The notes below the pieces were generated by a model. That model was not told the DNA's origin. It searched no databases and worked only from the letters and a program-made list of their open reading frames with translations. Shown in pieces: positions 39,645-60,080 of a stretch of DNA of 64,000 bases (position 1 is its first letter; every line of letters starts with the position of its first letter). The position numbers and the translations under genes are program-made. The stretch is from a virus, in the IMG/VR virus record IMGVR_UViG_3300024999_000038, positions 64,001 through 128,000 of that record, one strand, 5' to 3'.

Positions 39645-40160
39645 ATGAAATCAACAGGTATTATTAGGAGAATAGATGACTTAGGAAGGGTAGTAATTCT
39701 TAAAGAAATTAGACGAACTTTAAGGATTCATGAAGGAGATCCAATGGAATTATGTGTGCATGAAGGTGGAGTATTTTTAAAGAAGTATTCTGCATTAGGT
39801 GAAATGATAGATTATGCTCAAAACTTTGCTGATACATTATTTGAACAAACTGGCCATATTGCTTTAATTTGTGATAGCGATGTTGTAATTGCTGTATCTG
39901 GAACGTCAAAAAGAGATTTTTTAAATAAACCAATTTGGAATTTAGCATCTAAAGCAATGGAAGAAAGATTAACATTAACTGGCCTTAAAGATGGAATACA
40001 AGAAGAATTTGAATATGAAAATCAAATTGTTACACCAGTAATTTGTGAAGGTGATGTAGTAGGAGCAATAGGGTTAGTAGCGAAAGAAGAAGTTGGAATT
40101 GTAGAACAAAAACTAGTTCAATCTGTTGCAAGATTTTTAGCGAAACAAATGGGACAATAA
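39645..40160 (+). CDS. spoVT: SpoVT-like regulator (AbrB N-terminal domain + GAF domain)
   Basis: MKSTGIIRRIDDLGRVVI.KEIRRTLRI.EGDP...LKKYS...GDVVGAI...FLAKQM. Confidence 0.9.
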   Translation: MKSTGIIRRIDDLGRVVILKEIRRTLRIHEGDPMELCVHEGGVFLKKYSALGEMIDYAQNFADTLFEQTGHIALICDSDVVIAVSGTSKRDFLNKPIWNLASKAMEERLTLTGLKDGIQEEFEYENQIVTPVICEGDVVGAIGLVAKEEVGIVEQKLVQSVARFLAKQMGQ

Positions 40161-50326: not shown

Positions 50327-50758
50327 ATGCAAGTAGTAAATAAAGTTGCACAACATAATCAACCACAACAATTTAATAGAGGAGACATTTACTTAGCTAC
50401 AGTTGAAAATAATGTCGGAGGGTCAGTGCAAAATATTTGTCAGAGACCAATGATTATAATTTCAAATCCTATGAGTTTACTGCACTCGCCTGTGATTCAC
50501 GCAATTCCATTATCTTCTAAGACTTTTAAGCGATGGATTCCAACTCACGTTTCTGTACCTATGGCTAGTAGTGGTTTATTAAAGGATTCAATTGCACTTT
50601 GCGAACAAGTAATGTTGCTCCCGAAAGAGGTTTTTAGTAAAAAAATTGGCACATGCAGTAGTTTAATTGTAAACAAATTAGAAGAGGGTTTAATGGTACA
50701 ATTCGGGTTGTTTAATCATAGTCAAAATGTAAGAAACAATGTTGCTTATGCAAATTAA
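50327..50758 (+). CDS. PemK/MazF-family endoribonuclease-like protein
   Basis: RGDIYLA...GSVQ...RPMIIISN...SP...IPLSS...PTHV...GLLKDSIALCEQV. Confidence 0.85.
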   Translation: MQVVNKVAQHNQPQQFNRGDIYLATVENNVGGSVQNICQRPMIIISNPMSLLHSPVIHAIPLSSKTFKRWIPTHVSVPMASSGLLKDSIALCEQVMLLPKEVFSKKIGTCSSLIVNKLEEGLMVQFGLFNHSQNVRNNVAYAN

Positions 50759-50780
50759 AGAAGGAGAGATTATTTAAATA

Positions 50781-52379
50781 TTGGGGAAAATGAAAACTAC
50801 AGAACAGTATAGACAAGATTTAGAAGAATACAATTTAAAATATAATACAAAAATAGAGTTAAAGAATGGAGTTGAATATAATGGTGCTAATACTAAAATA
50901 TTACATATTTGTTCGTGTGGTAAAGAGTGGTTAGTTTCACCTTCAGGCGTTATAAATAGTAGTTCGAAAACAAGTTGTGGTTATACGTTTGCAGAAAAAG
51001 GAATCGATAATCTAGGGTATAATTTTTTAGAAAAATATTGGGATTATAAAACAAATAACGAATTAGGAATTGATCCTTGGAAAATTAGTTGTAGTTCTGG
51101 AAAAGAAGTTTATATATTTTGCCAAGAGAAAGATTATCATGGAAGTTATAAAGTACGTTGTGCTGATTTTAGTAATGGAAACAGGTGTGGTTATTGTCAA
51201 GGATACTATTTGGTTCATCCTTTAGATAGTTATGGACAGTATTTAATTGATTCATTTGGAATAACCGCACTAGAACTGTATTGGGATTATAATATAAACA
51301 CTGTTGATCCTTGGAAGATTACAAAACAATCAAATAAGATGGTATATATTAAATGTCAGAGGAAATATTATCATGGAAGTTATGGCATCAGGTGCAATGA
51401 TTTTATAAAAGGAGATAGATGTGGATATTGTGGAGGTAAAAAAGTACATCTATTAGATAGTCTAGGAACGTTACATCCAAAATCACTAGAATTATGGTCA
51501 AATATAAACGAAAAATCCCCATATGAATATATGCCTGGGAGCGATATGGAGGTTTGGTTTAAATGTGACAACAAGAGACATGAAGATTACCAAAAAAGAA
51601 TATATAATGCAGTAAACTGTAATTTTGGATGTCCGACATGTTCACAAGAACAAAAAGAATCTATCATGGCCTCCACACTAAAACAAGTACTAAGATATGA
51701 ATATAGTCACACAAAATGGGAATATGATGCAGGATTTAAAATAGATAATAGTATTAGTAGGTATGATATTTATGTTCCAGAATTGAATAACTTATTAATA
51801 GAATGCCAAAGTGAATATCACGATGATGAAAAACATATTATTAACGATCAACTTAAAAAACAGTTTGCTATTGATAATGGATATGAATATATAGCAATAG
51901 ACAAAAGAGATTTTTCCATAATAGAAATACTAAGGTTCTTTATACCATACATGGATAAAATTCCTGATTATGTACAATTAAATAAAAATACTACAAGAGG
52001 TTGGGATATAGAAAACGCTCAAAAATTGTTAGATAGTGGTCATACATATATAAATATAGCTAATATATTAGAAACATCAGTTACCGCGATACGTGCAAGT
52101 GTAGGAGACAATGGGTTAATCAAACCAAATAATTATACTTTTCAAGGTGAAAATATTGTTTGTCTGTCTATGGATAATAGTTTAATAAAAACATATAATT
52201 CTTGCAGTTCTGCCGCCAAAGATTTAGGAAAAGCAAATGGAACAAGTATTAGTTCATGTCTAACTAAGAAGCCTCGTTCAGACACAGGGAAAATTCGTGA
52301 AACAGCTTTTGGTTTTAAATGGATGTATTTAGTAGATTATGAAAATATGATTAAAGATCAAAATAATAAACCTCCGTAA
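50781..52379 (+). CDS. Putative homing endonuclease: repeated Zn-ribbon domains + PD-(D/E)xK-like domain + NUMOD1-like tail
   Basis: Three W..C...H...CGYC/CPTC repeats; RYDIYVPELNNLLIECQSEYH; YNSCSSAAKDL...ISSC...TAFGFKW. Confidence 0.7.
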   Translation: MGKMKTTEQYRQDLEEYNLKYNTKIELKNGVEYNGANTKILHICSCGKEWLVSPSGVINSSSKTSCGYTFAEKGIDNLGYNFLEKYWDYKTNNELGIDPWKISCSSGKEVYIFCQEKDYHGSYKVRCADFSNGNRCGYCQGYYLVHPLDSYGQYLIDSFGITALELYWDYNINTVDPWKITKQSNKMVYIKCQRKYYHGSYGIRCNDFIKGDRCGYCGGKKVHLLDSLGTLHPKSLELWSNINEKSPYEYMPGSDMEVWFKCDNKRHEDYQKRIYNAVNCNFGCPTCSQEQKESIMASTLKQVLRYEYSHTKWEYDAGFKIDNSISRYDIYVPELNNLLIECQSEYHDDEKHIINDQLKKQFAIDNGYEYIAIDKRDFSIIEILRFFIPYMDKIPDYVQLNKNTTRGWDIENAQKLLDSGHTYINIANILETSVTAIRASVGDNGLIKPNNYTFQGENIVCLSMDNSLIKTYNSCSSAAKDLGKANGTSISSCLTKKPRSDTGKIRETAFGFKWMYLVDYENMIKDQNNKPP

Positions 52380-52430
52380 TCAATACATAAATTCTAATAA
52401 TAAATAATAAAAGGAGAGATAATATAATAA

Positions 52431-53048
52431 ATGGTTGAAACATTAATATTTAGTCTGCTGTGTCTAAAAACAAAATTTGATCTAAAACTAGGCAAACTCC
52501 AAATACATAAAGAATCATACCTAATAAAACCAATGCTAAAAAGATGGAGCATCTATCCTGTAATATTTATGTCAATATTCTATGTCTATCTACAATACAC
52601 AATAATGAATCAGAATTACTATTTTCTTCAATATCAACACATAATAAAGAATGCTATATTAGGTTCATATATGATTCTAGGGCTTGATGTTTTGTTTAGG
52701 CATGAAAAGTATAAAGAGTATATTATAGCCTGTTGTAGTCTCTTGTGTGGCTTTACATTGAATAAGATTGTAATGCATTTCAATAATAATCTCATGCCAA
52801 TCTTCCCATCAATATCTTATTCAACAGGTTACACGCAATATGGTATGATTACGAATGCTTCTAAATTTAGCGATTTTCATGTTCTCGGAGATCATACAAC
52901 AAGATTGATATTTTTGGCCGATGTGTTTGATATAGGTGGTAGCATTTGGTCGGTCGGGGATATTTTAGTTAGATTATTTGCTTTTATAATTGTGTATTAT
53001 GCGGGTAAAGTAGTTAGTAAAATGCATACGAACAAAATATTGAATTAA
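52431..53048 (+). CDS. DUF5317-like integral membrane protein
   Basis: G..LN..V...N...MP...H....T.L.FLAD...SVGD motif set. Confidence 0.65.
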   Translation: MVETLIFSLLCLKTKFDLKLGKLQIHKESYLIKPMLKRWSIYPVIFMSIFYVYLQYTIMNQNYYFLQYQHIIKNAILGSYMILGLDVLFRHEKYKEYIIACCSLLCGFTLNKIVMHFNNNLMPIFPSISYSTGYTQYGMITNASKFSDFHVLGDHTTRLIFLADVFDIGGSIWSVGDILVRLFAFIIVYYAGKVVSKMHTNKILN

Positions 53049-53064
53049 TAAATAAATATAAAGC

Positions 53065-53093
53065 TTGCATTACACTCTTACATATGGTATACT
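53065..53093 (+). promoter_or_regulatory. SigA-type promoter for the membrane protein-agrD unit
   Basis: TTGCAT-17-TATACT with extended TG. Confidence 0.65.
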
Positions 53094-53133
53094 TGTTTTA
53101 GATTAAGAAACGAATAAGAAAGAGGTAATACAT

Positions 53134-53955
53134 ATGCAGAGTGTAACAAATGCTTTGTTGAATACAGTATTTGTAAGTTTACCAGAGGAAACATTTTACG
53201 CAATGATGACATTGATATTTTTGAAAAGATATGATCTATTAGATTTTAGAATGTGGAAAGAAAACATTACAACACTTATGATACCTATAATTCCAGTATC
53301 AATATTAATTAATATATTTAGATATATTATAATTATAGATAAAATACAAATGATGATTATTACAATAGTGATATTTTACATATTGTTATTATATATTGTT
53401 ATAAAATATAAAGTTGAAGATATTGAAAGAATACATATGAAAGTTTTATTAAACTTAGCATATAGCGTAGCAATATGGGTGTTCTTAGAAGAGATAACCT
53501 ATCCATCATTATTGTTTTTGATGAATTACCCACTCGAATTTATATCAAATAATATATTTTGGAATTTTATTTTAAGTGTTCCTTCAAGGATAATTGCTAT
53601 GGTTATAATAATATACAACATAGTTAAAAATAGTAACGAAATAAGCAATATAGAAGTTCTTGACGTCATTACTAATAATAAACTTTATCGAAGAATAATG
53701 CTTTTCTGCACAATGTCATTTATTTTATTATCATTATTCTTAATTAAACTTATTTGGTGTAATAAAATATTTGACAATAAGGTTCCTTTGTTTGAAAAGA
53801 TTATTATTACTGAATCGCTTTTTGTTTTGCCAGTAGTTGTAATATTCCTAATAATTATATTAATCAACAATCTTCTTGTAAAAGAAAAACAAATACAACA
53901 GTCTTATGAAAATCTTGTTATGCAAGACGACATAATGCTTGATGTAGAAGATTGA
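53134..53955 (+). CDS. Polytopic membrane protein resembling an AgrC/VirS sensor domain without kinase (paralog 1)
   Basis: About 7 hydrophobic segments; ends ~25 aa after the last TM with no H-box or HATPase; directly precedes agrD. Confidence 0.55.
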   Translation: MQSVTNALLNTVFVSLPEETFYAMMTLIFLKRYDLLDFRMWKENITTLMIPIIPVSILINIFRYIIIIDKIQMMIITIVIFYILLLYIVIKYKVEDIERIHMKVLLNLAYSVAIWVFLEEITYPSLLFLMNYPLEFISNNIFWNFILSVPSRIIAMVIIIYNIVKNSNEISNIEVLDVITNNKLYRRIMLFCTMSFILLSLFLIKLIWCNKIFDNKVPLFEKIIITESLFVLPVVVIFLIIILINNLLVKEKQIQQSYENLVMQDDIMLDVED

Positions 53956-53977
53956 TATGAAAGGAGGTGAAAAATTA

Positions 53978-54094
53978 ATGAAAAAGTACGCAATTATCGC
54001 TGGAGTGGTTGCTTTGTCAGCCGCAATGTTCTCAAATGTATTTGCTTCTATGTTCTTTTCTCATCAACCAAAAACTCCTAATTGCATGAAATAA
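53978..54094 (+). CDS. agrD: AgrD cyclic autoinducing peptide precursor (38 aa)
   Basis: AAGGAGGTGA RBS; MKKYAIIAGVVALSAAMFSNVFASMFFSHQPKTPNCMK carries the clostridial A-[C/S]-x-F/W-F-x-HQP-x-x-P signature. Not in the ORF track. Confidence 0.9.
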   Translation: MKKYAIIAGVVALSAAMFSNVFASMFFSHQPKTPNCMK

Positions 54095-54106
54095 TTTTAC
54101 CATACA

Positions 54107-54136
54107 TATAGGGAAGGACTTCGGTTCTTCCCTATA
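54107..54136 (+). terminator. Strong stem-loop after agrD
   Basis: TATAGGGAAGGAC-TTCG-GTTCTTCCCTATA (cUUCGg tetraloop); no U-tract, so terminator or mRNA stabiliser. Confidence 0.6.
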
Positions 54137-54176
54137 AATCTAATATAAAATATTTTATAAATTTACTAAAAATCTA

Positions 54177-54204
54177 TTGACATATCTCCCAAATATGGTA
54201 AGAT
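54177..54204 (+). promoter_or_regulatory. SigA-type promoter for the HTH-mazF-agrB unit
   Basis: TTGACA-16-TAAGAT with extended TG. Confidence 0.6.
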
Positions 54205-54271
54205 GTATTTAATGAAGTTGTAAATAAATTATATATACATCATTATAAATTGAAAAGGGAGTTGTGTTATT

Positions 54272-55060
54272 ATGTTTGAAAAATTTATTGGTAAAAAAGA
54301 GAGTACTATTACTGAGGAGAATACAAAAAAGGATTTCAAAAAGTTGGCTACATATGTTACTTTAGCCAAAGGCCCAAGAACTATTAATGGATTCGCAGCA
54401 GACTGCAAAACAAATGCTGACTATCTAGCTGATATTATCCATGTAAAAATCAATTCTTATCCTCAAGTTCAATTTCTGAAAATAATATCTGAAAATTCAC
54501 AAGGCAGAGTTTCATTAGATGATCTTAAATTATCTTGTGGATATTCTTTATATGAACATAATGATATGGAGCAAATAAAAAATATTAATGTTCGCAGAGG
54601 ATGGTTTTGTTACGTAAATCTAGGCCAAGTTTTGGACTCGGAATATGGGGGAAATCGAATGTGTTTGGTAGTGCAAAACGACGTAGGGAATCATTTCTCA
54701 AGCACATCAATTATTTTACCATTGACTTCTAGAAAATCAAAAGTAAAGCTTCCTACTCACGTCGAAGTTGGAATAAAAAATTGCGGATTACCGCAAGATT
54801 CGATTGTTAGTTGTGAGCAAATTCGTTGCGTATCGAAAAGGAGACTTATTCAAAATGGAATAGTCCAGAAAGTATCAGAATGTCCTCCAGATGTAATGTT
54901 AAAGGTAGAGGTGGCTTTATTAAAAGCACAAGGAGTTATACATCTTAAAATGAATGAACAGGAAGCTATTCAGCACTTAATGAACATGAATACCCAAAAA
55001 ACATACCAGTATCAAAATAATTATGCTAGTGCAGGACAGCAGGTGGCCTATGCACGATAA
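54272..55060 (+). CDS. XRE-like HTH fused to a PemK/MazF domain
   Basis: N-term LAKGPRTINGFAADC...P..QFLKII...QGRVSLDDLKLSCGY; C-term VRRG...SEYGGNRMCLVVQNDVGNHFS...LPLTS...LPTHV...DSIVSCEQIRCVSKRRL. Confidence 0.85.
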   Translation: MFEKFIGKKESTITEENTKKDFKKLATYVTLAKGPRTINGFAADCKTNADYLADIIHVKINSYPQVQFLKIISENSQGRVSLDDLKLSCGYSLYEHNDMEQIKNINVRRGWFCYVNLGQVLDSEYGGNRMCLVVQNDVGNHFSSTSIILPLTSRKSKVKLPTHVEVGIKNCGLPQDSIVSCEQIRCVSKRRLIQNGIVQKVSECPPDVMLKVEVALLKAQGVIHLKMNEQEAIQHLMNMNTQKTYQYQNNYASAGQQVAYAR

Positions 55061-55076: not shown

Positions 55077-55784
55077 ATGTTTTCAGTTCAAGATATTTCT
55101 GATCAATTGGCTACTAAACTATCAAAAAAAATATCATTAGATAAATTTAAAGAAGTTTGGGGGATCGTTATAAAAATATTCCCATCACTTGCTGATAAGC
55201 TTAATCTTGAACAAATAAAATCAATAAATGACTTATTAGGTTTATATAGTTATGGGATAACGGTATTTGTAGGATTACTATTCAAAGGCCCATTATTGAT
55301 TATAATATCAATTATCTTTGGAATATTTACACCAATTATGTTTGTGGTAACCACATTTTCAAGTTTTAGGGTTGTAGCAGGTGGTTACCATATGCAGACA
55401 TATTTAAGGTGTTGGATTGTAAGTTTTGTCACATTTATTGGATCTGCACTTATAGTCCAACACACACTTCAATATTGGTCTACCCAAAATATCTCTTCAC
55501 TCTTCATATTTTGTATTTTAATGGGATTATATATAATTTTTAGATATATTCCTCGCGACACACCCAATAAGCCAATTACAGAGCCATTGGAGATAGCAAA
55601 GTTTAAAAAATGGTCGTTATACTACTTAATTTCATGGGTAACAATAATGACCATTTTCTTATTCTTTAATCTAAAATTAATTGTTATTTCAAGTTGTTTT
55701 GGATTATTATTGGAATTATTTTCAATAAGTAAAATTGGTTATAGTCTATATTCCCTTGTAGATGATATTGGTATACATAAATAA
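55077..55784 (+). CDS. agrB: AgrB accessory gene regulator protease/cyclase
   Basis: FRVVAGGYHMQTYLRC (conserved R, GG-x-H and catalytic C) and PRDTPNKPI motif; multi-TM. Confidence 0.92.
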   Translation: MFSVQDISDQLATKLSKKISLDKFKEVWGIVIKIFPSLADKLNLEQIKSINDLLGLYSYGITVFVGLLFKGPLLIIISIIFGIFTPIMFVVTTFSSFRVVAGGYHMQTYLRCWIVSFVTFIGSALIVQHTLQYWSTQNISSLFIFCILMGLYIIFRYIPRDTPNKPITEPLEIAKFKKWSLYYLISWVTIMTIFLFFNLKLIVISSCFGLLLELFSISKIGYSLYSLVDDIGIHK

Positions 55785-55956
55785 TATCTCACAAACCACC
55801 TTACTATCCCACCTTATCCCATAATTGCAATACTTTATTCAATTTATTTTTCCAACATTTATGATATATTTACAGCAACAAGTAATAGCACATAATAACT
55901 GCCCCTTACTCAAACCACACCCACAAACTAAATAAAAAGAAGGAAGGAAACCCTAT

Positions 55957-56820
55957 ATGTCTATTACCAATGCTGTACTAAATCTACTATTTGTCTCCAT
56001 CCCAGAAGAAGCATTTATAGCAATAATAGCTATAACATTCCTAAATAAACTAGATAATCTTTTCGATATCTATATGTGGAAGAACAATCTCAAATGGCTT
56101 ATGATAGCAACATTGCCCACATCAATATTAATTTGTGTTTTACGATTTGTAATGTCTGTTCCCCAAAATATTGTAGTAAAATTAGCCATAATTATAATGA
56201 TTGCTTCAATGATATACATAGTAATTAAAAACTCTGACAAAATTACTATTCTATTAATATTTAAAACAGCAATGTTTACATTAGCAGGATTTGTAATTAC
56301 AGGAATATTGGAATACTCATATTGCCCAATAATATTCTCATTATTACATAAACCACAAGAATTTTTTAATAATGTTTTCCTCTATAATTTTCTATTAGGT
56401 TTACCTGCAAGAGTCCTTTACACCTGTATTATCACTTTTATCATAATGAAGAAAAATGGCAAAGTTAAAGTAAATTTATTTGATACTTTAGTCAAAAGCA
56501 AATTAATCATTGGTATTTTCATTGCTACAATATTATCTGTAGTTTCATTAATTGCCTATGTTGCTAAATTGATAGAAAATGAAAGCATTTTGTTTAGTTT
56601 TCAATTCATTGATCAATTTATTATCATTGTAATAATCACATCTGTACCAACTATTTTAATCACATTGTTATTGATAGTTATTAATTATTTAATATCAGGT
56701 GAGAAGGAAAATCAGCAAATGTACGAGAATGCTATGGGTAGTAGGGATGAGAATGAGGATATAAATGAGGATGGTAATAATAGTAGCGATGAAGATATTT
56801 ATGAAAATTATTATGAATAA
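55957..56820 (+). CDS. Polytopic membrane protein, kinase-less AgrC-like (paralog 2), acidic tail
   Basis: SITNAVLNLLFVSIPEEAF versus SVTNALLNTVFVSLPEETF; NFLLGLPAR versus NFILSVPSR; EKENQQMYEN versus EKQIQQSYEN. Confidence 0.55.
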   Translation: MSITNAVLNLLFVSIPEEAFIAIIAITFLNKLDNLFDIYMWKNNLKWLMIATLPTSILICVLRFVMSVPQNIVVKLAIIIMIASMIYIVIKNSDKITILLIFKTAMFTLAGFVITGILEYSYCPIIFSLLHKPQEFFNNVFLYNFLLGLPARVLYTCIITFIIMKKNGKVKVNLFDTLVKSKLIIGIFIATILSVVSLIAYVAKLIENESILFSFQFIDQFIIIVIITSVPTILITLLLIVINYLISGEKENQQMYENAMGSRDENEDINEDGNNSSDEDIYENYYE

Positions 56821-57525: not shown

Positions 57526-57568
57526 ACAATAAACTACTCTGAGATCATGTCACTGAGTAGTTTATTGT
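57526..57568 (+). terminator. Stem-loop terminator
   Basis: ACAATAAACTACTC...GAGTAGTTTATTGT 14-bp stem. Confidence 0.6.
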
Positions 57569-57587
57569 AGAAATAAAGTATTTTTCC

Positions 57588-57617
57588 TTGACATTATTGC
57601 ACAACTCATGTTATTAT
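57588..57617 (+). promoter_or_regulatory. SigA-type promoter of the repressor operon
   Basis: TTGACA-18-TATTAT with extended TG. Confidence 0.55.
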
Positions 57618-57649: not shown

Positions 57650-59020
57650 ATGCTTAAAGAAAAATCGGTTGCACTCATGAGGGAACTAAATGTGTTAATT
57701 AAGAAGTATAGTTCAAACGACAAGGTAAGAAAATTAATTGTAGAAGAATTTGATAAAAGAAATATGAAGGGCAGTTTAGCGGTCGGCATCTTAAATGAAA
57801 ATAGAGAGCTATCCACATTAGATATTGATGAAAGCAAAGATGTAATAATGTTATTTATTTTCACTATGAGTATGTATAATGCATTGACATATAAAGAGGA
57901 AGAAGATAAAGAGGCGTTGGGAGAAATTGAAGAAGGGTTAAGAATTGATCCTAAAAATTATTTTACTGAAATTGAAATTGAAAACCTAAATGACTATAAG
58001 TTTGAAAAGAAAATAGACAAAAAAGACGAAGTTATTATTTTCCCCAAAATGAGTAGAATTGCCCCTGATTTCTTTTCAGGCTATATGTCAGGAAAGCATT
58101 TTGCAGAATTAGATGCAGGAAATGAATTTATCTATAATTTTAAGACTCAGCGTGACCCAATTATTGATGTATCTGGAATGAAGAGGATACATTTAAATAA
58201 AACAAATGCAAAAGAAATTAGAGATGGCCTAATCTCAAAGAATCAATTCCCAACTACCATAGTAGTAAATGTTCTTAAAGACGGTGAAGACGAGATATAT
58301 TATGATGAGAAAACAGGCGATTTGTCTATTATTTCAGGTACTAAAAACCTTGTTGATGGAATGCATAGAAAAGTTGGTAATAGTTTGGCTCTCGCTATTG
58401 ATCCAGACTTGGAGTTTAATTGGTTATTAGTTGTAACAAACTATAGTGAAATTAGAGCACAAAAATATATGGTGGAAATTAACAAGCAACAAAAAATGAA
58501 ACAAGAACATATTAAAAATATGGATACTGCCAGTCTTGGAAATATTGTTGTTGATGTTATTAAAGATATCAATAGTTCTGAATTTGCTGGACATATCAAA
58601 GATAGCGACAAGGAATTAGAACATGGAGGTTTAACTAGGAAGTCAATTTTAACTTTAGCAATTGAGGAAATATACAAAGATAAACTTGAAAACAAAACAT
58701 TCATAAAACCTATCGCCAACCACATTACAAACGTTATGGATCATATTATTGCATTGAGAGTTGATGAGTTTATGAAATATCCTGAAGCCACACGTAAAGT
58801 AAGCTATATCAACCACAAGAATATGTTTGCAGGATATGTAGCTTTATCTGAGAGACTATATGGAGTTGAAAAATGGGATGACCTCCTTGAGGAAATTTTA
58901 GATAAAATTGATTTCAGTATGAAAAATTCTTTTTGGGAAGATATTGGATTGGGCAAAGAGTCCGATATGAAGAAAACTACACGAAACAATCTATACGAAT
59001 TCTTTCAAAAATTAATTTAA
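57650..59020 (+). CDS. DndB/DGQHR (ParB-like) domain protein, SPbeta YopQ/SroE-like
   Basis: YNFKTQR...FPTTIVVN...LVDGMHR...EINKQ; 456 aa; directly upstream of a recombinase-fold protein. Confidence 0.7.
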   Translation: MLKEKSVALMRELNVLIKKYSSNDKVRKLIVEEFDKRNMKGSLAVGILNENRELSTLDIDESKDVIMLFIFTMSMYNALTYKEEEDKEALGEIEEGLRIDPKNYFTEIEIENLNDYKFEKKIDKKDEVIIFPKMSRIAPDFFSGYMSGKHFAELDAGNEFIYNFKTQRDPIIDVSGMKRIHLNKTNAKEIRDGLISKNQFPTTIVVNVLKDGEDEIYYDEKTGDLSIISGTKNLVDGMHRKVGNSLALAIDPDLEFNWLLVVTNYSEIRAQKYMVEINKQQKMKQEHIKNMDTASLGNIVVDVIKDINSSEFAGHIKDSDKELEHGGLTRKSILTLAIEEIYKDKLENKTFIKPIANHITNVMDHIIALRVDEFMKYPEATRKVSYINHKNMFAGYVALSERLYGVEKWDDLLEEILDKIDFSMKNSFWEDIGLGKESDMKKTTRNNLYEFFQKLI

Positions 59021-59036: not shown

Positions 59037-60080
59037 ATGACTAAAAATGAAATCATTGATGAAACTAAAATCCAAGAAGTCGAAGAAAAATTAATGTTTG
59101 AAGTTGATCCTGAAGTTAAGGAAGAATTTTTAGAAAAGCAATTAAAATCAACTAGAAGTTATTATCGGTATATTTTAAAACTTGCCGATGAATTTGAAGT
59201 TAAATTAGGAAAACCAATTTACAATTTCAATACTGAAGAAAGAGATGAGTTATTGACTGTTCAATATAAAAACAAAAATATATTTGCATTTCAAACTGTT
59301 TTGTCTCCATTAAAAACTTATGTTGATTTTTGTATATCTCCTAAGAATTTAGTACGACACAATGAAAATCGCTTTAGTAGTATCCTTACTTCAAACTACA
59401 AAGTTTATATCAGTAAACAAGCAAAAGAAAATTCTTATATCCCTTTATCTGAATGTAGAGAATTTCAATCTAAATTAGCGAATTATCAAGACATGTTAAT
59501 TCTTGAATTGCCAAATCTAGGAGTTAGAGGTCGTACTGAAAAAGGAAATACTCTTGAGGAACTGGTTAATCTAAGGGAAAAAGATATTGAATGGGAGAAA
59601 AAGAGATTACATCTTACCAAAAACAATGGTGAAGAAAGATGGATTGAAGTTGATGATTACACTTTAGATTTACTCAAGAAAACCATCAATCAAGATTTTT
59701 ATATATCCAATAATGGATTAAAGACAAAACCGAACGACGATGGGGTATATGAACGTACAGAAAGGGGAAGAATGATTAATAAAACTGAATATGTATTTAG
59801 AATTCCAGGTAAGAATAAACATGGTAAGGTTGAATACCAATTTTTTGCTAGTAGAATCCAACGTATTCAAAAATGGTTAGGTAAACCGTATATTAGCATT
59901 AGTAATCTGTATTTTTCTGCTATTATAGAATACTCAAAGAAACTAAAAGAAGAGAAAGGTGAATTGATTAGAGAAGATTATATTTCAATCAATCAAAGAT
60001 TTGAATTTGGAGAAGATGGTGAGAAATATGTCTTTAAAACTAGAGAGCTTGTTGAATCATATCTTGACGATGAGAGGTAA
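59037..60080 (+). CDS. Tyrosine-recombinase-fold protein lacking catalytic HxxR; putative lysogeny master repressor (YopR/MrpR/SroF-like)
   Basis: SAM-like N-domain (FEVKLGKPIYNF...LKTYVDFC); G..G...EELVNLREKDI; ISNLYFSAII in place of HxxR. Confidence 0.65.
   Translation: MTKNEIIDETKIQEVEEKLMFEVDPEVKEEFLEKQLKSTRSYYRYILKLADEFEVKLGKPIYNFNTEERDELLTVQYKNKNIFAFQTVLSPLKTYVDFCISPKNLVRHNENRFSSILTSNYKVYISKQAKENSYIPLSECREFQSKLANYQDMLILELPNLGVRGRTEKGNTLEELVNLREKDIEWEKKRLHLTKNNGEERWIEVDDYTLDLLKKTINQDFYISNNGLKTKPNDDGVYERTERGRMINKTEYVFRIPGKNKHGKVEYQFFASRIQRIQKWLGKPYISISNLYFSAIIEYSKKLKEEKGELIREDYISINQRFEFGEDGEKYVFKTRELVESYLDDER

Follow-up and report, generated by a model that had tools for sequence, protein, structure and literature searches.

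The goal of this analysis was to determine what two mazF-like genes without an adjacent antitoxin gene do in the genome of a large, uncultured SPbeta-like phage. The window, 64,000 nucleotides in full, is bases 64001–128000 of a 150,268-bp IMG/VR virus record (IMGVR_UViG_3300024999_000038; CheckV completeness about 71%). One of the two genes, here called MazFA, stands alone at the head of a small gene module; the other, MazFB, carries an N-terminal helix-turn-helix (HTH) domain and lies between the agrD and agrB genes of the same module. The locus raises the question of whether these genes are halves of toxin-antitoxin operons and, if they are not, what controls their products and to what end. 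Our approach was to characterize the two proteins and their neighborhoods, the latter by a related-locus search in IMG/VR and tblastn maps of each locus. The answer that we favor, at somewhat short of an even chance, is that the two proteins would be the RNases through which a peptide-controlled switch between lysis and lysogeny takes effect.

The two MazF homologs and the absence of an adjacent antitoxin gene

The two genes and the parts of MazFB are given below, with the basis of each assignment in parentheses.

50327–50758, + strand: MazFA, a stand-alone MazF/PemK homolog of 143 amino acids, the first gene of the module (PF02452)
54272–55060, + strand: MazFB, the whole HTH-MazF fusion of 262 amino acids (homolog family and AlphaFold model)
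54308–54544, + strand: MazFB residues 13–91, a predicted five-helix XRE/Cro-C1-type HTH (AlphaFold, pLDDT 81–92)
54545–54586, + strand: MazFB residues 92–105, the conserved acidic linker Y-x-N-N-D-M-E-Q-I-K-N-I (family alignment)
54587–54931, + strand: MazFB residues 106–220, the predicted MazF RNase core with R129 and T152 (PF02452 and Foldseek)
54932–55057, + strand: MazFB residues 221–262, a helical extension and disordered tail ending ...NNYASAGQQVAYAR (alignment; family consensus ...QVAFA)

An initial annotation, made from the sequence, had described both open reading frames (ORFs) as MazF homologs, and profile searches bore this out. MazFA matched Pfam family PF02452 (PemK_toxin) with 55.8 bits (E 6e-15, residues 18–125) and MazFB matched it with 79.2 bits (E 3e-22, residues 109–217), both far above the curated cut-off of 23.1 bits. 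MazFA also matched phrog_1936, "MazF-like growth inhibitor," in PHROG (1.8e-18). In phmmer alignments with Bacillus subtilis MazF/YdcE (1NE8, 4MDX), R129 of MazFB (GGNRM) fell on R25 and T152 (LPLTS) fell on T48; the T48A substitution abolishes the RNase activity of B. subtilis MazF (PMC10769878). In the alignment of MazFA with Staphylococcus aureus MazF from the PDB, R40 (QRP) occupied the position of the catalytic Arg and S63 (IPLSS) that of the Thr. These are the residues that the initial annotation had singled out, Arg and Thr in MazFB (GNRM, LPLTS) and Arg with Ser in place of Thr in MazFA, and the alignments placed them where it had proposed.

MazFA was assigned to the MazF fold by sequence alignment over 113–120 residues. 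For MazFB a full-length AlphaFold model was available (pLDDT 73), and a structural search with its C-terminal half returned the MazF/Kid/CcdB group. The core superimposed on B. subtilis MazF (1NE8/4MDX) with a TM score of 0.89, an rmsd of about 2.1, and 39% identity in Foldseek, and on S. aureus MazF (4MZM) with a Z score of 16.9 in VIA-align, which places it among the SH3-like MazF/Kid/CcdB barrels.

The close family of the fusion comprised 54 full-length homologs of 256–279 amino acids and 49–81% identity on many metagenome and phage contigs, and an exhaustive HMMER search added a wider set of HTH-MazF fusions at 27–42% identity; we conclude from these two sets that the fusion is not an assembly artifact. 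It was seen only on phage and metagenome contigs. Full-length relatives were absent from the deposited phage and plasmid collections, and single distant members of the family had no match in IMG/VR. Among the close fusions R129 was invariant and T152 was retained in at least 90%, with Ser in the others; a comparison of 23 close and 19 distant fusions gave an invariant Arg and either Thr or Ser at the Thr position, and the 11 MazFA orthologs likewise kept Arg and Thr/Ser. Because these residues are kept in close fusions, distant fusions, and MazFA orthologs, the RNase dyad is under purifying selection. Both proteins are predicted from these alignments to be MazF-fold endoribonucleases, with RNase activity expected of each.

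Neither gene is preceded by a small mazE-like ORF, as the initial annotation had stated, and the checks of ORFs, repeats, and Rfam families agreed. MazFA is preceded by a 140-nt spacer and by small membrane ORFs that vary and are poorly conserved. Ahead of MazFB come agrD, a hairpin of 28 bp that is conserved, and a promoter-like site. A search for RNA antitoxins found zero ToxI-like tandem repeats and zero Rfam families beside either mazF gene. In the 150-kb record the RHH_1 domain had no match, and the sole MazE/AbrB-type domain was that of a SpoVT homolog 10 kb upstream (39645–40160). This protein, which has an AbrB/MazE-type N-terminal domain and a SpoVT_C match of 9e-33, is probably a sporulation regulator, not an antitoxin. 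The adjacent antitoxin gene of a mazEF-type type II operon was found at neither MazFA nor MazFB, and neither of these genes is one half of a classical toxin-antitoxin operon.

The initial annotation had further called the N-terminal domain of MazFB an XRE-like HTH; this call stood at the level of the fold only: the confidently modeled part matched XRE/Cro-C1 domains, and no Pfam HTH profile matched. Among the top 50 VIA-align matches of the full-length model, those that were not MazF proteins, which fell on residues 13–91, were almost all XRE/Cro-type (Z 7–9.5; rmsd 1.6–2.9 over 62–76 residues). They included 2ofy (Z 9.5), C.AhdI (Z 8.7, rmsd 1.7), SinR (Z 8.2), and ImmR (Z 8.1), and also CapH, P22 c2, the 434 repressor, and HigA; the call of an XRE fold rests on the consistency of these matches rather than on any single score. 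At the sequence level, phrog_18248, "transcriptional regulator," matched all nine N-domain sequences searched (best E 4.8e-5), and a profile of the domain found nothing significant in PDB and Pfam, the best match being the ATfaRel2 antitoxin (E 0.56). When modeled alone, the domain was poorly predicted (pLDDT 62), and the matches that this model gave, to HTH and winged-helix domains, were weak. A search for operators found that the 12-mers common to the promoter regions of the module occurred at chance level. We regard the domain as an XRE-like HTH supported at the level of the modeled fold, and it may bind DNA. A set of gut Heliusvirales phages, in which the N-domain had seemed to be a separate gene upstream of MazF, was set aside: the tblastn extension was a ride-along, and BLASTP and hhalign found no similarity.

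Between the two domains, N97, D98, and I102 of the linker (N-N-D-M-E-Q-I-K-N-I) were invariant in the close family, and the linker of the distant fusions was acidic too (EED..W). An N-terminal HTH followed by a conserved acidic linker is the arrangement expected of an antitoxin that has been joined to its toxin in one chain, with residues 92–105 as the candidate cis-inhibitory segment. A fused antitoxin would explain the missing mazE.

The relationship of the two MazFs was examined in an unrooted maximum-likelihood tree of 11 MazFA orthologs, 10 MazFB cores, 17 distant fusion cores, and 28 ordinary MazFs, the last chosen as the best matches to MazFB. MazFA and the MazFB-type fusions shared one side of a branch with support 100/95, and six distant fusions grouped with the ordinary MazFs; by this tree, MazFA and the MazFB core form sister clades distinct from the ordinary MazFs. 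Both paralog families and many distant fusions also have [AQ][YF]A at the C terminus, in some cases followed by a further residue (...QVAYAR, ...QVAFA, ...NNVAYAN, ...LQYA). The tail of MazFA is ...RNNVAYAN, and 10 of its 11 orthologs had an [AV]YA tail. The strict form of the end, [AQ][YF]A(x), was found in 29 of 53 close relatives and in 6 of 148 MazF representatives, all six of them fusions; its chance occurrence is about 5e-4 per protein. The shared end is probably a common docking or degradation signal. By analogy, it resembles the non-polar ends of ssrA tags that ClpXP, a protease recognizing C termini, reads. The initial annotation had offered mutual control of the two MazFs through a hetero-oligomer as one possibility. 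This idea gains indirect support from the sister relationship, the shared C-terminal motif, and the joint occurrence of the two proteins in 16 of about 17 loci described below.

The peptide module and its position upstream of SPbeta-type repressor genes

The remaining features of the module and the repressor genes that follow it are listed here.

50781–52379, + strand: treble-clef zinc finger/NUMOD1 homing-endonuclease-like gene, 532 amino acids (PF14311 4e-17, NUMOD1 4e-4)
52431–53048, + strand: DUF5317 membrane protein (PF17248 5e-17)
53134–53955, + strand: TM1, a multi-pass membrane protein of 273 amino acids with cytoplasmic end KEKQIQQSYENLVMQDDIMLDVED (no match in Pfam)
53957–54094, + strand: AgrD-type precursor with the core ...FASMFFS-HQPKTP (TIGR04223, 22 bits against a cut-off of 19)
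54111–54138, + strand: palindrome/hairpin of 28 bp, ATAGGGAAGGAC-TTCG-GTTCTTCCCTAT, no U-tract, directly after agrD (conserved)
54177–54204, + strand: sigma-A-type promoter-like site, TTGACA, 16 nt, TGgTAAGAT (10/12 of consensus, extended −10)
55077–55784, + strand: AgrB-type peptide-processing membrane protease with the motif GGYH...C (PF04647 4.7e-35)
55957–56820, + strand: TM2, a paralog of TM1 with a long acidic tail (alignment; in about half of the loci)
57650–59020, + strand: YopQ/SroE-like (DndB-fold) gene, first of the repressor pair and marker of the slot (PF14072)
59037–60080, + strand: YopR/MrpR/SroF-like integrase-fold repressor (PF22822 MrpR_N_CB 4e-13)

The first 14 IMG/VR loci (L003–L016), found through the fusion, had the order MazFA, a variable endonuclease-like gene, DUF5317, TM1, AgrD, HTH-MazFB, AgrB, TM2 in some, a small gene, and the YopQ-like and YopR-like genes. 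Five further module loci (L099–L101, L103, L111) were found through a distant fusion or YopQ. Altogether the module was present in about 17 related phage contigs, with protein identity down to about 32%, and always just upstream of YopQ/YopR homologs. MazFA was present in all but one of these loci, and DUF5317, the constant partner of the Agr genes, in nearly all. In the locus of the window MazFB ends 16 bp before agrB, as first annotated (its stop codon ends at 55060, and the AgrB ATG is at 55077). The second and third clades have the same parts in another order, with AgrB before DUF5317; adjacency to agrB is not universal, and membership of the module is. Flanking genes and repressor alleles have been exchanged between loci (YopQ identity ranged from 23% to 84%) while the module was retained, which argues for functional linkage and not mere inheritance.

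As a separate observation, locus L112 (2278–4351) has a reduced module: the small gene and YopQ/YopR follow directly on MazFA and DUF5317, and the membrane receptor, AgrD, HTH-MazF, and AgrB are missing. The endonuclease-like gene at 50781–52379 is not at this site in L005, L006, L013, and L014, and its product is 93% identical in L099, where neighboring genes are only 30–40% identical. The gene has the look of a mobile insertion and does not belong to the functional module.

AgrB and AgrD, two components of an Agr system, are present in the module; AgrC and AgrA are not. AgrD ends 177 nt upstream of MazFB. Its core (AS[WMY]xx[SAT][HY]QP) has Ser at the position of the usual ring-forming Cys, which implies a lactone ring. 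Across the loci (L003–L016, L099–L103) the leader was conserved and the five ring residues varied (SMFFS, SWLFS, SWLGA, SYFIS, and others). The hairpin after agrD was kept in nine loci with compensatory changes in its stem. In nine loci, too, the −35 and −10 hexamers of the promoter-like site were conserved together with a downstream element, and the site is the putative promoter of an HTH-MazFB/AgrB unit.

No AgrC-type kinase was found: HATPase_c_5 had no match anywhere in the 150-kb record (about 71% complete), and TM1 and TM2 lack a kinase domain. The only LytTR signal in the record was below threshold (16.3 against 22.6 bits) and outside the module. In the absence of an AgrC-type kinase and an above-threshold LytTR from the record, the module requires another output.

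TM1, which has no kinase domain in Pfam, has relatives of 263–279 amino acids solely in this phage group. From locus to locus TM1 did not exceed 50% identity, including in cases where AgrD was 92% identical but differed in its ring residues. Since this is the variation expected of a receptor, TM1 is the candidate peptide receptor. An Atlas name lead had labeled it "sensory transduction protein kinase" (0.93), and a truncated AgrC was considered; this was rejected because it rested on the Atlas name, and longer or kinase-bearing relatives and matches in PDB or NCBIfam were not found. Compared with L003, TM1 was 41% identical, diverging with the peptide core, and TM2 was 82% identical; TM1 and TM2 may sense different signals.

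The initial annotation had also suggested that acidic cytoplasmic tails of the membrane paralogs control the MazFs. The tails themselves (...QDDIMLDVED; ...DENEDINED...YYE) were found in the translations. The acidic run was conserved in one clade only; the first membrane protein of the second clade ends in ...NSEKQTFRND, TM2 tails vary, and the conserved part of the tails is a juxtamembrane Q-x-Y-E-N motif only. Because the run is specific to one clade and only this motif is conserved, the proposal of control by acidic tails is weakened.

The module lies directly upstream of YopQ/YopR-type genes, which is the slot of aimR-aimP-aimX in phage phi3T, where the order is aimR-aimP-aimX-phi3T_92...95 (yopP)-96 (yopQ)-97 (yopR). 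The product of 57650–59020 matched phi3T_96 (yopQ) in BLASTP with 1e-15 over 347 amino acids, and that of 59037–60080 had tblastn matches to phi3T_97 and SPbeta phages. YopQ, YopR, YopX, and YoqB are the SPbeta-like gene types in the window, and a tblastn search of the 150-kb record with phi3T proteins found only these four, and no AimR, AimP, AimX, YosL, or phi3T_93. In phi3T the arbitrium system acts by turning the host MazF on or off. The RNase activity of this MazF promotes lysogeny, AimX and YosL inhibit the enzyme by binding to it, and phi3T_93 binds MazE, frees MazF, and promotes lysogeny (Zamora-Caballero et al. 2024, PMC10769878). In the summary given by a 2025 preprint, phi3T AimX is an antitoxin of the MazE type (bioRxiv 10.1101/2025.11.23.689978).

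Some further observations were made on the region and the record. A terminator-like hairpin (ACAATAAACTACTC...GAGTAGTTTATTGT) followed by a promoter match (TTGACA, 18 nt, TGTTATTAT, 11/12) was present at 57526–57617; this promoter match is the best of the region and lies just upstream of the YopQ-like gene. The record has 29% G+C, and its + strand carries nearly all genes. The spacer between AgrB and TM2 (55785–55956) is strikingly C-rich for such a genome (CACAAACCACCTTACTATCCCACCTTATCCCA ... CCCCTTACTCAAACCACACCCACAAAC), and GC skew falls to about 0 across 54–56 kb of the window. GGWCC, AGATCT, GGATCC, AGGCCT, and TCCGGA are at zero in the 150,268-bp record and several other 6-bp palindromes are strongly under-represented, a pattern typical of restriction-site avoidance. 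A megablast search with the 9-kb region found zero matches in the phage and plasmid collections.

Weighing the possible roles of the MazF pair

In the mechanism that we favor, this phage group would supply MazF RNases of its own as effectors of its lysis-lysogeny decision. MazFA, DUF5317, TM1, AgrD, HTH-MazFB, and AgrB, with or without TM2, are the fixed components of a kinase-less Agr-type peptide module. The HTH and the acidic linker would act as a built-in antitoxin or regulator of the MazFB core, and the fused HTH would give a module lacking AgrA its only DNA-binding-type protein. MazFB would regulate its own promoter and restrain its own RNase until the signal comes, and would possibly pair with its sister MazFA. 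The MazFs would in this way be linked to the peptide signal and affect lysogeny.

Several results weigh against this mechanism. UACAU, the cut site of the Bacillus, Staphylococcus, and Clostridioides MazFs, is not depleted in the record (295 on the + strand, 278 on the −). UACAU(A) was low by raw density in the repressor genes, and codon-shuffle controls explained this. With UACAU not depleted and the repressor genes matching their codon composition, there is no sequence footprint of the RNase. A second word, ATAACA, occurred 68 times on the + strand and 105 times on the −, and the strongly avoided words were palindromic restriction sites. In MazFA the catalytic Thr is replaced by Ser, with both residues seen among its orthologs. 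The HTH call is model-based, with Z scores of 8–9.5 that lie near the noise level stated for the tool with small helical domains; zero Pfam HTH families matched MazFB, nine N-domain sequences, or 10 distant fusions, and the predicted recognition helix has acidic residues, leaving the helix-turn-helix segment with a net charge of about zero. The resemblance of the linker to MazE is by eye only, and hhalign detected no similarity between the linker and AimX; the idea that the linker or the membrane-protein tails are MazE/AimX-like (GY.EMA.IN motif) was dropped as an eyeball resemblance, hhalign and phmmer being negative. The tail motif is missing from MazFB of L100 and L103 and MazFA of L111 and L112. 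As to hosts, no full-length relative of the fusion was found among one genome each of 185,579 prokaryote species. Finally, phages of Lactobacillus, Lachnospiraceae, and others that have no Agr genes commonly carry a solitary MazF gene, so generic host shutoff is a possible role of the MazFs described here.

The last point leads to the alternative that survives best, which we nevertheless consider unlikely: that the MazFs are generic host-takeover morons that degrade host mRNA early and have no part in the choice between lysis and lysogeny. Both MazFs match phrog_1936, whose category is "moron, auxiliary metabolic gene and host takeover," and the avoidance of cut sites is not seen in the phage. 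Set against this is the linkage of the MazFs to the Agr module and the repressor slot, which persists across about 17 contigs, at identities as low as about 32%, despite exchanged flanks and alleles. A general shutoff RNase of UACAU specificity would, moreover, find the UACAU-rich phage genome itself vulnerable.

Rather less probable still is the proposal that MazFB is mainly a transcription factor analogous to AimR, with its MazF barrel as a module for dimerization and ligand or peptide binding, its RNase irrelevant or lost, and MazFA as a heterodimer modulator. By its modeled XRE fold MazFB is the only DNA-binding-type protein in a module without AgrA and AgrC, and conservation extends both to its own promoter and to an element downstream. 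Binding of quorum-sensing peptides (EDF) by MazF proteins, which would favor the proposal, has been reported (PMC3668371), and these reports have been contested, at least in a reviewer comment in PMC2701414. Were catalysis irrelevant, it is difficult to see why Arg and Thr/Ser should be retained in a family diverged to 27% identity.

We also doubt, somewhat more strongly, that the MazFs serve prophage defense, inactive in the lysogen through the cis domain, a membrane protein, or host MazE and firing on superinfection as a peptide-tuned abortive infection. The site beside the immunity region is typical of prophage defense morons, and defense proteins that fuse toxin and antitoxin exist, CapRel among them. 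MazEF itself acts as a phage defense (PMC10769878, discussion). Against these points, none of the module proteins matched the PADLOC defense models, a trigger-sensing domain is not evident, and two paralogs with a peptide system exceed the needs of exclusion. Last, that the phage MazFs are decoys that titrate host MazE, as the initial annotation had also suggested, or poison host MazF by heterodimerizing is very improbable despite the precedent of phi3T_93 (which binds MazE and releases MazF) and the 39% identity of MazFB to Bacillus MazF, because a decoy has no need of the catalytic residues that are kept.

Relation to known systems and meaning for phage decisions

The two phage proteins share the fold and the catalytic Arg/Thr positions of B. 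subtilis MazF/EndoA and S. aureus MazF (PDB 1NE8, 4MDX, 4MZM). They differ from these in having no upstream mazE, in lying inside a peptide-signaling module, and in their [AQ][YF]A ends; MazFB in addition has an XRE-type domain, an acidic linker, and a 45-residue C-terminal extension. With the arbitrium locus of phi3T the module has in common the slot upstream of yopQ/yopR-type genes, a secreted-peptide system alongside, and the implication of a MazF-type RNase. The peptide system is AimR/AimP there and an Agr-type AgrB/AgrD ring peptide here, and the MazF here is encoded by the phage, in two copies, and not taken from the host.

In combining an antitoxin-like N-terminal part and a toxin in one chain, with no separate antidote gene, MazFB resembles CapRel(SJ46) and EzeT. 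The toxin of CapRel(SJ46) is a RelA/SpoT-type pyrophosphokinase and that of EzeT a zeta kinase; cis-inhibition has been demonstrated for both, and for MazFB its layout suggests it. MazF-mx of Myxococcus xanthus, as far as it is cited in PMC2701414 and PMC4803016, is a solitary MazF controlled by the transcription factor MrpC. On that description it, too, is a MazF without a linked MazE that was recruited to a developmental decision and is held by a DNA-binding regulator; the Myxococcus regulator is separate and unlinked, whereas here the HTH is fused to MazF and the setting is a phage.

Much of the background is already known: MazF itself, solitary MazFs, phage "MazF-like growth inhibitors," phage agr genes, and the link between MazF and arbitrium. 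The Clostridioides difficile phage phiCDHM1 has agrB and agrD homologs, as here (PMC3901668). Phage-borne solitary MazF homologs are likewise found as phrog_1936 genes in Lactobacillus and gut Lachnospiraceae phages, but those are plain proteins of about 118 amino acids near replication genes, without the HTH fusion, Agr genes, or [AQ][YF]A tail. The agr locus of phiCDHM1 presumably has an agrC kinase homolog and no MazF genes, in contrast to the absence of a kinase and the presence of two MazFs here. Our literature searches found no description of an XRE-HTH-MazF single-chain family, of a fixed MazF pair in a kinase-less Agr module in the arbitrium slot, or of the shared C-terminal motif.

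The role that we favor for the MazF pair as RNase output can be widened into a more tentative proposal, which we think possible without expecting all its parts to hold. In large SPbeta-like phages of anaerobic Firmicutes, arbitrium would have been replaced by a kinase-less Agr ring-peptide system whose output is a MazF pair owned by the phage. The HTH-MazF would be a DNA-binding single-chain antitoxin-toxin gated by a membrane protein, an A-[YF]-A degron or docking tail would make the toxin a regulated, short-lived partner, and RNA cleavage would set the balance of lysis and lysogeny.

In phi3T the arbitrium signal ends at the host MazF. Phage-owned MazFs in the same slot, with another peptide system, would independently support a general role of MazF-type RNases as effectors of such decisions, and would offer a self-contained and simpler system for finding the RNAs that they target. 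With the XRE-HTH-MazF fusion, MazF would join the few single-chain toxin-antitoxin proteins. The shared C-terminal motif hints at a common partner, and the family provides new candidate sequence-specific RNases.

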